Shown: positions 9,665 through 14,935 of the stretch, one piece after another
Layout: every line of letters starts with the position of its first letter
How positions within the stretch are numbered: position 1 is the stretch's first letter
Origin: a virus
Length of the DNA stretch: 64,000 nucleotides
Reading direction: 5' to 3' (one strand)
IMG/VR virus record: IMGVR_UViG_3300032401_000690
Coordinates: 64,001-128,000 of that record
Program-made: the position numbers and the translations under genes
The notes under the pieces: model-generated
What the model saw: the letters and a program-made list of their open reading frames with translations, nothing else
Told to the model about the DNA's origin: nothing
Databases searched by the model: none

Positions 9665-9753
9665 TTAAATTATAGGTTTCCTCCGACTGTTATTTTTATA
9701 TCATACGAGACACAACTGGTGGGTGTCCCCCCAAATTATAGGTATCTTCCAAC
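9665..9753 (-). CRISPR. CRISPR-like mini-array 3 (1 diverged 36-bp repeat, 1 spacer, 1 truncated repeat)
   Basis: Repeat 9718-9753, 30-bp spacer 9688-9717, degenerate partial repeat 9665-9687. Confidence 0.6.
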
Positions 9754-10007
9754 CATATACTGAGTATATCCCTTGTTTGTGAGTCATCTAACCCAAAAAT
9801 GTTTTTAAAAAACGACCAAAGTCTTTCTCTATTTATAAACACAAACCCATTTTTAATATTATGACGATAGAAAAATAACGGTCTTAGGTCTCTATCAACA
9901 TAAAATGTTTTATCACCTTTAACCTCCGGAGTTAAATCACCAAACTCTTTGTGTAACCACTTAAACACCAATCTGTCCCTACTACTTTCAGTTATTATTA
10001 TTTTCAT
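9696..10007 (-). CDS. Domain X protein copy 3 (unknown function); C-terminus encoded by repeat plus spacer
   Basis: Paralog of 10286..10624 and of the C-terminal domain of 10636..12129. Ends WLEDTYNLGGHPP-VVSRMI. Confidence 0.8.
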   Translation of the reverse strand: MKIIITESSRDRLVFKWLHKEFGDLTPEVKGDKTFYVDRDLRPLFFYRHNIKNGFVFINRERLWSFFKNIFGLDDSQTRDILSIWLEDTYNLGGHPPVVSRMI

Positions 10008-10014
10008 ATCATTT

Positions 10015-10370
10015 TAAATTATAGGTCTCTTCCAACCTTAGGTACGCTTGATTTGAATGGAAGAAACCATGTGTGAGTCCCCTCAAATTATAGGTCTCTT
10101 CCAACTTTTACTATTAATAAAAACATCCTATTCTGGGTGTGAGTCCCCTCAAATTATAGGTCTCCTCCAACTACGCCAAGCTTTGCAAAGGAGACCAAGT
10201 AGGTGTGAATCCCCTTAAATTATAGGTCTCCTCCAACTATAGAGAGAAAAGTAGAATAGCCCAAGTTGGTGTGAATCCCCTTAAATTATAGGTCTCCTCC
10301 AACGGAATTGGAAATGTAAAGGGTTGCCCAAGTTGGTGTGAATCCCCTTAAATTATAGGTCTCCTCCAAC
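10015..10370 (-). CRISPR. CRISPR-like mini-array 2 (5 full 36-bp repeats, 5 spacers of 30-33 bp, 1 truncated repeat)
   Basis: Repeats at 10335-10370, 10268-10303, 10202-10237, 10136-10171, 10070-10105, partial 10015-10036. Spacers 31, 30, 30, 30, 33 bp, all different. Minus-strand consensus GTTGGARGAGACCTATAATTTRAGGGGAYTCACACC. Confidence 0.75.
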
Positions 10371-10624
10371 CATATAGTCAGAATCTCCTTTGTTTGCAAG
10401 TAACTCAGACCAAAAATAGAATCAAAAAATACCCAAATTCTGTCGTAATTTATATAAACATCCCTATTTTTTGAATCCTGGTAATACACAAATAACGGTT
10501 TTCGGTCCTCATCAACATAATATGTTTTATCATCTTTAACCACCGGAGTTAGATCACCAAACTCTTTGTGTAACCACTTAAACACCAATCTGTCCCTACT
10601 ACTTTCAGTTATTATTATTTTCAT
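10286..10624 (-). CDS. Domain X protein copy 2 (unknown function); C-terminus encoded by repeat plus spacer
   Basis: MKIIITESS...WLEETYNLRGFTP-TWATLYISNS-VGGDL. Paralog of the neighbouring genes. Confidence 0.8.
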   Translation of the reverse strand: MKIIITESSRDRLVFKWLHKEFGDLTPVVKDDKTYYVDEDRKPLFVYYQDSKNRDVYINYDRIWVFFDSIFGLSYLQTKEILTIWLEETYNLRGFTPTWATLYISNSVGGDL

Positions 10625-10631
10625 ATCATTT

Positions 10632-10786
10632 TAAATTATAGGTCTCTTCCAACCAATTTACAGAAACTTGACGGTATATAATTGGGTGTGAGTCCCCTCA
10701 AATTATAGGTCTCTTCCAACGGGATTTGCATAATCACCTGCCCATGCACTGGTGTGAGTCCCCTCAAATTATAGGTCTCTTCCAAC
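10632..10786 (-). CRISPR. CRISPR-like mini-array 1 (2 full repeats, 2 spacers, 1 truncated repeat), translated as the end of the SOD fusion gene
   Basis: Identical repeats 10751-10786 and 10685-10720. Spacers 10721-10750 (30 bp) and 10654-10684 (31 bp). Partial repeat 10632-10653. Confidence 0.7.
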
Positions 10787-12129
10787 CATACCTTCAGAAT
10801 CTCCTGTGTTTGCGGGCGTTTCAGACCAAAAATAGAATCAAAAAATACCCAAATTCTGTCGTAATCTACATAAATAAACCCATTTTTTTCATCCTGGTAA
10901 TACACAAATAACGGTTTTCTGTTCTCATCAACATAAAAGGTTTTATCACGTTTAACTACGGGTGTTAGATTTCCAAACTCTTTGTTTAACCACTTTAATG
11001 CGGATTTAAATTTAGGATCAACCGATTCGTTAATTGATTCTTTTTTACTTGTTCTCAAGTCATAAAGACTAGTAACGAATTCCCAATTAATATGGTTCCA
11101 AAATTTATTAATATATTGGTCTCGTTTATTTTTATATCTTAAATAATATGCGTGTTCCCAAAGATCTAATCCAAGGATTGGATATCCACCATTAACATCA
11201 TTCATTAATGGGTTATCTTGGTTTGGTGTTGTAATAATTTTTAATCTATTAGTTTTTGTTAAAACCAACCATACCCAACCTGAACCAAAACTATCCAAGG
11301 CGGCCTTATTAAATTCTTCTTTAAAATTTTTAAATGATTTGTATTGGTTTGTTATTTTATCTAAAAGATCCCCTTTTAAAGTTTGTTTTTTTGGGGTTAA
11401 CATTTTCCAAAACAATGCGTGATTAAATGCACCACCGGCATTATTTCTGACCTTTGTATTAAATTTAGTGATAGTTTTAATGATGTCCTCAAGTTCTATA
11501 TCACCTTTTCTACTTGATAATGCATCATTTAATTTTTTAACATAACCTTTATAATGTTTGTTATAATGAACATCCATTGTTTCAGGATCAACAAATTGTT
11601 TTAATGCCGAATATGAATAGGGTAATTTCTCAATACCAATTTTTTTCATTTCGGTAATGAATTCTTTTTGAATGTTAATTTTGTCTGTTAATACGATTTG
11701 TTCTGTTAAGATATCAATTCTATTTGAAATGGGTTTTAACCCCTCATAAACAATATTAACCATTTCGGGGTGTTCTTTTTCAAACATTTTAATTAATCGT
11801 CCAGCACCAGCATTTGCTTCATCCTCATTTTTTCCACCAATATCTTGACCAATTTCCCGTTTTAATATGGTCATTTGATGTTCGTGAATCCATTCGTGTG
11901 CAAGAGTTCTTAAGATATCTCGGTTCAACCGACCTTTAGTTAAAATTTTAATACCAAACTCATCACTTCTACTACCAGTCGTCATTTGACCTGTGCGATC
12001 ACCCAAGAAAGAAACTAATATATCATTCTTTAATGGATATTTTTCATTTAAAAACTTAATAAATTTTTTGGCAAGATCCTTACTTTCTTGGGACATTGAG
12101 CATTTAATATGTTTAATAGATACTTTCAT
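10636..12129 (-). CDS. sod: Three-domain fusion: HExxH metallopeptidase-like domain + Fe/Mn superoxide dismutase + domain X
   Basis: TLAHEWIH...NEDEAN, then SOD motifs LPYSYSAL, HYNKHY, NHALFW, FGSGW, NQDNP, DLWEHAYY, then KWLNKEFGNLTP...WLEETYNLRGLTP. Confidence 0.85.
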   Translation of the reverse strand: MKVSIKHIKCSMSQESKDLAKKFIKFLNEKYPLKNDILVSFLGDRTGQMTTGSRSDEFGIKILTKGRLNRDILRTLAHEWIHEHQMTILKREIGQDIGGKNEDEANAGAGRLIKMFEKEHPEMVNIVYEGLKPISNRIDILTEQIVLTDKINIQKEFITEMKKIGIEKLPYSYSALKQFVDPETMDVHYNKHYKGYVKKLNDALSSRKGDIELEDIIKTITKFNTKVRNNAGGAFNHALFWKMLTPKKQTLKGDLLDKITNQYKSFKNFKEEFNKAALDSFGSGWVWLVLTKTNRLKIITTPNQDNPLMNDVNGGYPILGLDLWEHAYYLRYKNKRDQYINKFWNHINWEFVTSLYDLRTSKKESINESVDPKFKSALKWLNKEFGNLTPVVKRDKTFYVDENRKPLFVYYQDEKNGFIYVDYDRIWVFFDSIFGLKRPQTQEILKVWLEETYNLRGLTPVHGQVIMQIPLEETYNLRGLTPNYIPSSFCKLVGRDL

Positions 12130-13972: not shown

Positions 13973-14935
13973 ATGAGTAAATTTGAATTATATGGTTTGT
14001 ATTGTCCGTTAACCAACGAAATAAAATATGTTGGTATAACAAAAAATGGATTAAATAAAAGATTAAATAGTCATTTAAGAAAACCAACTAACGAATTTAT
14101 TGGTAAATGGTTTAAAGATTTAAAAAACAATAATAACAGACCAATTATTAAATTAATAAAAGAGTGTGACTCTTACGAAGATTTATTACTTTCCGAATAT
14201 AATGAAATAAAAAAACTTAGGGAATTAAAAATAGATATTTATAATTTAACTGACGGTGGGGATATTAATCCAATGTTGGGTAAATCACACACTTCCGAGT
14301 CTAAACTTAAAATGTCTTTATTCCATAAGGGGAAAATAATAAGTGACGAACAAAGACAAAAACAAAAAGAAACGTTAAATAGGTTGTGGTCAAATAAATT
14401 ATGGTCTGAAAAAATGAAACAAAAAATGTCGGAAAATACATCGGGGAGTAATAACCCAAATTGGAAGGGAGGGGTAACTAATGAGAAATGTTTATGTGGT
14501 AATAAAAAGAGTTTTGGTAGAAAAACTTGTATGTCTTGTAGGGACGTAAATGGAATTAAAAATCCGTTTTTTGGTAAAAAACACAGCGAAAAAACATTAA
14601 ATATATTAAGAGAAAAAAGTAAAAAATATGGGAAGGAAAACCCTAATTTCAAATACGATATTAATGAAGAAGAATTATATAATTTATATATTAAAAATAA
14701 TAAAACAGTAGTTGAGATTAGTAATCAATTTAATTGTGCGATAAACACAATAAATAAAAAATTAAGACAATATAATATATATAAACCAAAATCTAATATT
14801 TATAATTTAGTGATTGATGATGTAAAAAATTATTTACTAAATAATTTAAACTATATTCAGATTGGTTATATCTATGGGTGTAGTAATAAAATTATACATA
14901 AATTTGTAAAAAAACATAACTTATATGTCAAATAA
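13973..14935 (+). mobile_element. Free-standing GIY-YIG homing endonuclease with NUMOD3-type DNA-binding repeats
   Basis: LYGL...YVGIT...RLNSH...E...N GIY-YIG core. NUMOD3-like MLGKSHTSESKLKMS and FFGKKHSEKT. Very A-rich. Confidence 0.8.

Follow-up and report, generated by a model that had tools for sequence, protein, structure and literature searches.

Repeat arrays that begin in the coding 3' end of a phage gene family carry a reading-frame imprint on their spacers

We analysed a window of 64,000 nucleotides (nt), positions 64001-128000 of the 144,147-bp IMG/VR virus record IMGVR_UViG_3300032401_000690 (G000; linear, 31.7% G+C, CheckV completeness 49%), in which genes for a domain of about 100 amino acids (aa), here called domain X, run in frame into arrays of 36-nt repeats that resemble clustered regularly interspaced short palindromic repeats (CRISPR). 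The comparison set consisted of 68 IMG/VR loci with X, which hold 46 arrays of at least 2 repeats and 93 distinct spacers. All of these arrays (46 of 46) begin where an X homologue has its C-terminus and share one frame with it, and the main new result is that this frame has left an imprint on all spacers, first and later ones alike.

Counted over the opening 15 nt of the 93 distinct spacers, stop triplets number 35, 4 and 32 in the three phases; the count of 4 belongs to the phase in which the protein frame carries on. Against these 4 protein-frame stops within the first five codons, 26.7 +/- 4.2 are expected from column-preserving shuffles, none of which (0 of 5000) was as low. The bias is equal for first spacers, where 2 of 37 stops lie in the protein frame, and for later spacers (2 of 34). 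It is gone beyond nt 15 of the spacer, and stops after codon 5 occur at chance frequency. In 58 of the 93 spacers a hydrophobic residue stands at tail position +2, compared with a background of about 41%, the commonest residues being F, L, I and W. As a control, 30 spacers of a cellular Cas13b array were counted in the same way, giving 6, 8 and 14 stops by phase and no such bias.

The imprint agrees with the last strand of the AlphaFold2 model of X, which was built on a 90-sequence alignment (predicted local distance difference test, pLDDT, 91; predicted template modelling score, pTM, 0.82). In this model the last helix (75-90) ends with the repeat-coded WLEETY, the repeat-coded residues as a whole being 86-97, and the full-length model builds its last strand (96-100) from the repeat-coded T-P and the first three spacer-coded residues; pLDDT is 94 through residue 100 and 62 after it. 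The repeat-coded residues and tail positions +1 to +3 are predicted to belong to the X fold, and the question raised in a preliminary description of the window, whether the repeat-coded LEETYNL is part of the domain, is answered in the affirmative by the model. Taken with the imprint, the model indicates that X needs a few residues past the repeat, one side chain of which would face inward. Across the 46 arrays, the tail ends inside spacer 1 in 16 and at a frame-shifted repeat 2 in 23; L042 and L048 read entire arrays in frame. Repeat spacings of 65, 66, 67 and 68 nt occur 14, 32, 20 and 8 times, respectively, and are not restricted to multiples of 3.

In the window, three tandem modules on the minus strand (9665-12129) each consist of domain X followed by a repeat array, and a fourth lies on the opposite strand at the record end (genome positions 143.7-144.1 kb). 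The 36-nt repeat GTTGGAAGAGACCTATAATTTGAGGGGACTCACACC and its variants are present as 8 full copies and 3 copies cut to 21-23 nt, and the first 21 nt of the repeat give 11 matches where 0.01 are expected. The preliminary description, made without database searches, had reported that every array opens with a repeat that is in frame and coding, had listed the resulting tails, and had noted that several repeat variants are synonymous and that one encoded position is L or F. All of this was confirmed on the minus strand. The first repeat, in frame with the upstream open reading frame (ORF), encodes LEETYNLRGLTP in the 497-aa ORF, LEETYNLRGFTP in the 112-aa ORF and LEDTYNLGGHPP in the 103-aa ORF; this first repeat is made of the codons that follow a conserved Trp, (W)LEETYNLRGxTP; GAA/GAG and TTG/TTA are synonymous, and CTC/TTC gives L or F. 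The reading frame of the 497-aa ORF stays open across the two full repeats and the two spacers of array 1. Arrays 1, 2 and 3 hold 2, 5 and 1 spacers of 30-33 nt with a repeat spacing of 65-69 nt, and every array closes with a repeat cut after about 22 nt. Two of the cut repeats, near 10632 and 10015, end in ...AATTTAAAATGATATG and lead directly into the ATG of the next X gene, as had also been described. The features are collected in Table 1.

Table 1. Coordinates of the X genes and arrays in the window
Feature	Positions	Strand	Description	Basis
497-aa ORF	10636..12129	(-)	N-terminal part of unknown family (HExxH) + Fe/Mn superoxide dismutase + X1	translation, Pfam
Array 1 repeat 1	10751..10786	(-)	doubles as codons LEETYNLRGLTP of X1	
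Array 1 spacer 1, 30 nt	10721..10750	(-)	translated VHGQVIMQIP; missing from otherwise matching L117	
Array 1 repeat 2	10685..10720	(-)	in frame, spacing 66	
Array 1 spacer 2, 31 nt	10654..10684	(-)	protospacer in unrelated phage	
Array 1 terminal repeat, cut to 23 nt	10631..10653	(-)	next X gene's ATG directly after	
112-aa gene X2	10286..10624	(-)	domain X + tail TWATLYISNSVGGDL	translation; AlphaFold pLDDT 91 and 87.5
Array 2	10014..10370	(-)	five spacers, 30-33 nt	
Array 2 full repeats	10335-10370 (coding), 10268-10303, 10202-10237, 10136-10171, 10070-10105	(-)		
Array 2 cut repeat	10014-10036	(-)		
103-aa gene X3	9696..10007	(-)	decayed repeat coding LEDTYNLGGHPP + tail VVSRMI	
Array 3 remnant	9665..9753	(-)	degenerate repeat 9718-9753, spacer 9688-9717, cut degenerate repeat 9665-9687	

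A search of 1.84 billion proteins gave 328 cluster representatives for X at an expect value (E) of 0.001 or better. No Pfam or PHROGs family was found for X, Pfam has no family for its N-terminal fusion partners except superoxide dismutase, and 50,697 GenBank phage records contain neither an X homologue nor a spacer source. In fold searches no solved structure resembled X convincingly, with E not below 0.1 in Foldseek and Z not above 4.3 in VIA-align, and the ESM Atlas returned viral hypothetical clusters only. A eukaryote-like tetratricopeptide repeat protein (P0096) was dropped because it matched X by motif only. A 296-kb, 100% complete relative (G002) contains at least 11 X genes, with repeats at no fewer than 8 dispersed loci. 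The repeat lineages follow the local protein variant, namely LDEVYNLRGVTP, LSEAYNLRGVTT, VEERYNLRVTT and VEEHYKVGVTTT. Array-less X homologues retain W-L-x-E-x-Y-N/G-L and are basal and interspersed in the X tree, so the coding motif looks older than the arrays; array presence changed at least 3 times on the same tree. One relative translates whole arrays: the 760-aa ORF P0064 has five X-like domains, each followed by one or two in-frame repeat-spacer units (VLEEHFKSKGVTP plus 10 aa), with zero stops across eight spacers.

The 93 distinct spacers found in related contigs are 28-33 nt long and mutually unrelated, and the 46 arrays, with up to 8 repeats, keep a spacing of 65-68 nt. Relatives whose flanks are 92-98% identical carry wholly different spacers, and contigs from lake and sediment metagenomes show other 28-30-nt inserts between the same repeats. 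Just two of the 93 spacers are shared between loci, always in the trailer position, and no reordering was seen; trailer spacers are common to L018 and L011, and four related contigs retain the spacer of X3. In a near-identical metagenome contig (L117), the five-spacer array 2 is identical and the X1-type gene is free-standing, with the trailer spacer only and the tail NYIPSSFCKLVGRDL. Array 1 of the window has one spacer more than this contig, on the gene-proximal side. Together, L117, the trailer-only sharing and the varied spacers fit polarised insertion at the gene end, though for L117 the loss of a unit by repeat-to-repeat deletion would look alike. The spacer that follows the gene differs between populations, as the preliminary description had anticipated. 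Its notion of swappable tails held in that spacers are read as tails and keep the first five codons open in first and later positions, but recombinational swapping was not seen, and relatives carry new spacers instead.

At least some spacers come from other phages. Array 1 spacer 10654-10684 is identical over 29 of 29 nt, and over 30 of 31 in all, to a site in a 147-aa ORF beside an endolysin gene, where it is read in a different frame. The carriers of this protospacer (L115 and L116) are two small phage contigs that otherwise have nothing in common with the window phage. Matches to array 1 spacer 1 (10721..10750) are absent in IMG/VR and in metagenome contigs. In metagenome contigs, one window spacer had no match and one led to the same array only, and BLAST of two window arrays against 401 Flavobacteriaceae genomes gave just 19-27-nt matches at chance level.

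The reading that we favour, with moderate rather than strong confidence, is that these are genuine Cas-less type VI-B-like CRISPR arrays on a large phage, which grow at the gene end and whose tails are filtered by translation. The X gene would serve as the array "leader", the first repeat being the last 12 codons of X, and new spacers, some from other phages, would enter at the gene-proximal repeat. A host adaptation complex acting in trans may insert them, as is known for VI-B arrays: those of F. columnare gain spacers in trans through the co-resident type II-C Cas1-Cas2, and this capture from double-stranded DNA is not strand-specific (PMC8092290). By analogy, trans action of host Cas1-Cas2 on a phage-borne array is plausible. 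Each new spacer would become the tail of X, and only those insertions would survive that leave about five codons open, place a hydrophobic residue at +2 and so complete the beta-strand. The coding imprint would then stay on spacers later pushed down the array, since each of them would once have been first, translated and filtered. A host effector may use the array RNAs as guides against competing phages, or it may be diverted by them as decoys. We infer both the inserter of the spacers and the user of these RNAs.

The preliminary description had proposed, as an alternative to guide RNAs, that recombination between repeats swaps tails of about 10 aa onto X. In the form of this model weighed here, the protein is the selected product: the arrays would store tails for X, brought in by spacer capture or by recombination and with no guide RNA involved, and a new tail could, for example, escape or engage a variable host factor. 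Much of what we found is in keeping with it: later spacers, now untranslated, keep the first five codons open like first spacers, the linkage between X and array is unbroken (every array starts at an X homologue), a complete genome lacks cas genes, no RNA covariation is seen while the repeat variation is all conservative at the amino-acid level, whole arrays are in frame in L042, L048 and P0064, and the tail varies across populations. However, the constraint ends after about 5 codons, 16 of 46 tails stop in spacer 1 and 23 at a frame-shifted repeat 2, the spacing of 65-68 nt does not keep the frame, and reordered spacers were never seen among relatives. The one spacer with a source is a verbatim piece of another phage's gene in a different frame, some repeat codons are fixed beyond the needs of the protein (TTG 45/45, AGG 39/39, ACA 35/35), and polarised capture with a folding filter accounts equally well for the imprint on later spacers. 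The preliminary reading is thus supported in part, and we regard a tail store as unlikely. The same low likelihood applies to its form in which spacer capture is a protein-writing device, that is, the adaptation machine inserts random 30-nt DNA and tails, not guide RNAs, are selected. Tails as filtered by-products of spacer capture are more likely than a purpose-built library.

Besides the protein, the repeat is constrained at the nucleotide level. Several degenerate codons are frozen inside it, the three codons just counted being invariant, and the normalised entropy of 4-6-fold codons is 0.15 in the repeat compared with 0.50 upstream (p 0.005); downstream, untranslated repeats remain identical. 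Therefore, either something besides the protein reads the repeat DNA or RNA, or the copies homogenise one another. As to whether the repeat is conserved as amino acids or as an RNA structure, a point raised in the preliminary description, no base-pair covariation was found: the score for 51 distinct repeats is not above shuffles, and their consensus fold is a 3-bp stem of -0.21 kcal/mol. The covariation that the preliminary description had named as evidence against its model is therefore absent. The repeat of each array is always the local variant of the X 3' end, and in many arrays the terminal repeat breaks off at the same place, after about 22 nt. A repeat of this length would suffice for a type II-like CRISPR RNA (crRNA), not for a Cas13b crRNA.

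That the repeat always equals the local X 3' end is also what one would see if the arrays were functionless scars, left when host Cas1-Cas2 mistakenly integrates at the repeat-like X 3' end ("neo-CRISPR") and the phage keeps those insertions that spare X. In favour of this explanation, E. coli experiments are known in which ectopic integration gave rise to new arrays. It would also suit the want of an effector, of covariation and of a single repeat consensus across lineages, decayed remnants such as X3, the at least 3 changes of array presence on the X tree, and the translation filter being the only selection clearly seen. Yet the arrays are the rule rather than the accident, since most X ends carry one and at least 8 loci do so in one complete genome; they persist over X lineages of only about 40% identity, synonymous variation is lowered inside the repeat, and the same cut site of terminal repeats in many arrays is not predicted by simple integration duplication. 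We hold this explanation to be slightly less probable than the tail store.

Among repeat classes, type VI-B (Cas13b) comes nearest to the phage repeat. When 401 genomes of the family Flavobacteriaceae were searched by pattern, one cellular array of the phage repeat shape was found, a Bergeyella zoohelcum-type VI-B locus (G035) with 33 repeats spaced 66 nt apart, which encodes Csx27 and a Cas13b that scores 837 bits for NF038190 and is identical to PDB 6AAY. Its repeat and the phage 36-nt repeat are identical at 24 of 36 positions ungapped, a figure biased upward by the search pattern, which was taken from the phage repeat. In this cellular array (L114:8347-10547), one interval of 185 nt stands among 30 of exactly 66 nt, so that the array is either interrupted there or contains one longer unit. 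Rfam gave nothing at the gathering threshold and, at a loose threshold, only CRISPR-DR8 with 22 bits against a cut-off of 39; the letters of the Bergeyella repeat had no match in a text search of the literature. In the phages, no Cas13b, Cas1, Cas9 or Cas12/TnpB was above the cut-off in the window-phage record (49% complete) or in G002 (100% complete), with positive controls. A PADLOC scan through alignment of 96 large G002 proteins, whose output lists the commonest families only, named methyltransferases. An 1825-bp phage-like contig in a Flavobacterium bin (L091 / G001:C129) carries two LDEVYNLRGVTP-type repeats at an X end of the phage type; this either hints weakly at the host group or reflects a binning error.

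A resemblance to VI-B repeats at 24 of 36 positions, the Cas-less multi-copy layout and the presence of VI-B systems in the likely hosts (Bacteroidota) are all compatible with decoys or regulators, either RNA anti-CRISPRs or crRNA-like RNAs, whose transcripts would load or titrate a host Cas13b-type effector and whose spacer content would matter little; phage repeat mimics are documented (PMC10651486; 10.1101/2024.10.29.618823). The known ones are solitary repeats or fixed mini-arrays, whereas the X arrays exchange their spacers between relatives and contain one with a match in a rival phage. Moreover, no host with the phage repeat was found in 185,579 species genomes or in the 401 Flavobacteriaceae, and the VI-B repeat end stem is not kept. 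Among the explanations weighed, we find decoys the least probable.

Several observations count against Cas-less arrays that grow at the gene end. The lone protospacer, a single case that does not decide the matter, is in sense orientation and could not pair with target mRNA if the array is co-transcribed with X, and the matching spacer precedes a cut repeat, so that a Cas13b crRNA, made of a spacer and then a full repeat, could not use it. No source was found for five of the six window spacers tested (no exact IMG/VR match), and the difference between the window and L117 could equally come from a repeat-to-repeat deletion instead of a gain. In 46 of 51 repeat variants, positions 2 and 35 of the VI-B-type end stem (GUUG/CAAC) fail to pair, again with no covariation, and up to about 40% of positions vary between repeat lineages, so a single host effector could hardly read them all. 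No effector or adaptation enzyme was identified in phage or host, and an array of the phage-repeat pattern is present in 0 of the 185,579 species genomes, where only two single hits were obtained, one of them on the phage-like contig of about 1.8 kb in a Flavobacterium bin. With these points counted, the reading as translation-filtered Cas-less CRISPR arrays still ranks above the tail library, the ectopic scars and the decoy RNAs.

Some further features of the modules and their surroundings were recorded. The first three spacers of array 2 (window 10172-10334 (-)) start with AACTTGGGC, AACTTGGGC and TACTTGGTC, giving tails TW... and a shared 5' end (A/T)ACTTGG, and one L014 spacer has the same 5' start; either Trp at tail +2 is favoured, or the repeat plus 9 nt was duplicated. 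Every full repeat contains a perfect TATAAT hexamer in its Tyr-Asn codons, for example at window 10768-10773 (-). Promoters carried in the repeats are known in type II-C arrays. A scan of promoters and terminators found no excess over shuffles.

The superoxide dismutase part of the 497-aa ORF is well matched in Pfam (Sod_Fe_N, E 7.5e-21; Sod_Fe_C, E 1.1e-39). It lies between an N-terminal part of about 150 aa with HExxH (AHEWIHEH) and the C-terminal X, and the same three-part fusion occurs in G002 (L047:4648-6180) and in P0090. Small X genes start with MKIIITE|S (window 10604-10624 (-)), and the fusion linkers before X read INE|S, LNE|S and FTE|S (window about 11040-11060 (-); P0018, P0026). 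The T4 prohead protease cuts at Leu/Ile-x-Glu sites. The start and linker sites of X resemble these, and by this analogy X might be freed in the head and injected. Genes near the modules include a family-B DNA polymerase, a head-tail adaptor-like gene, an SNF2 helicase and a homing endonuclease; the last is of NUMOD3/HNH type (window 13973-14935 (+)), adjoins the SNF2 helicase gene and lies immediately upstream of the module block. A homing-endonuclease site was dropped as the cause of the repeat, as it leaves the 30-nt ruler unexplained. Integron attC sites, for which the spacers are far too short, and TIGR-Tas arrays, whose geometry differs, were dropped as well.

Compared with generic CRISPR arrays, the phage arrays have the same near-identical direct repeats (36 nt) and unique spacers of a tight length range, but their leader and first repeat are coding (codons 86-97 of X), and cas genes were not found in the phage. 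VI-B arrays are more closely alike: they share the 36-nt repeat, spacers of about 30 nt, a GTTGGAA 5' end, a ...TTTG.AGGG... core and a repeat direction equal to that of the upstream gene, and in them, too, cas1/cas2 are not beside the array. On the other hand, the phage arrays come without cas13b or csx27, have a coding leader with a translated first repeat, do not keep the complementary ends of the repeat and close with terminal repeats of about 22 nt, and the frame imprint is absent in the cellular array. CRISPR repeats and leaders are usually taken as non-coding, while here the repeat is a structural protein part across an uncultured jumbo phage family, and no description of a translated first CRISPR repeat was found in the literature searched. 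The arrays offer a natural case in which a single sequence meets three demands, namely protein fold, repeat recognition and spacer insertion.

Cas-less arrays and mini-arrays from viruses, huge phages included, Racr RNA anti-CRISPRs (PMC10651486) and crRNA-like regulators (10.1101/2024.10.29.618823) likewise place CRISPR-type repeats on phages that bring no effector or adaptation genes, and presumably both they and the phage X arrays rely on host proteins. Phage repeat mimics and mini-arrays have been described as non-coding elements (PMC10651486; PMC10120712; 10.1101/2024.10.29.618823), unlike the X arrays, which are fused to a conserved domain, occur many times per genome and have spacers filtered by translation. 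The imprint would be a readable record of spacer entry at the gene-proximal end, and it raises the questions of who inserts spacers into a cas-less phage genome and whether phages turn host effectors on rivals.

Arrays made by ectopic integration are similar in that they take their repeat from the sequence at the site, which every insertion copies once more, and the repeat therefore equals the local gene variant; they differ in that X arrays are conserved across a phage family and their host sequence is essential to a protein fold. To our knowledge, the ectopic founding of arrays has been seen only in laboratory E. coli, as rare events, and the X genes suggest a possible route for the birth of new arrays inside genes. 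In TnpB/IscB systems, the scaffold of the guide RNA (omega-RNA) overlaps the 3' end of the nuclease ORF. There, as in the X genes, one stretch is both the 3' coding end of a gene and the constant region of a guide-like RNA, whose variable region comes directly after it, but X, at about 100 aa, has no nuclease motifs or known fold, its arrays have multiple spacers, and there are no transposon ends.

Finally, pilE/pilS, vlsE and diversity-generating retroelements also combine a constant body with a variable C-terminal segment that differs between populations. The X spacers differ from these in that they are not homologous variants, one of them being foreign, no silent-copy donors are apparent, and only about 5 residues are constrained. 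If the tails nevertheless proved to be the product, the arrays would represent a new way of protein diversification, and the first known use of CRISPR adaptation for it.

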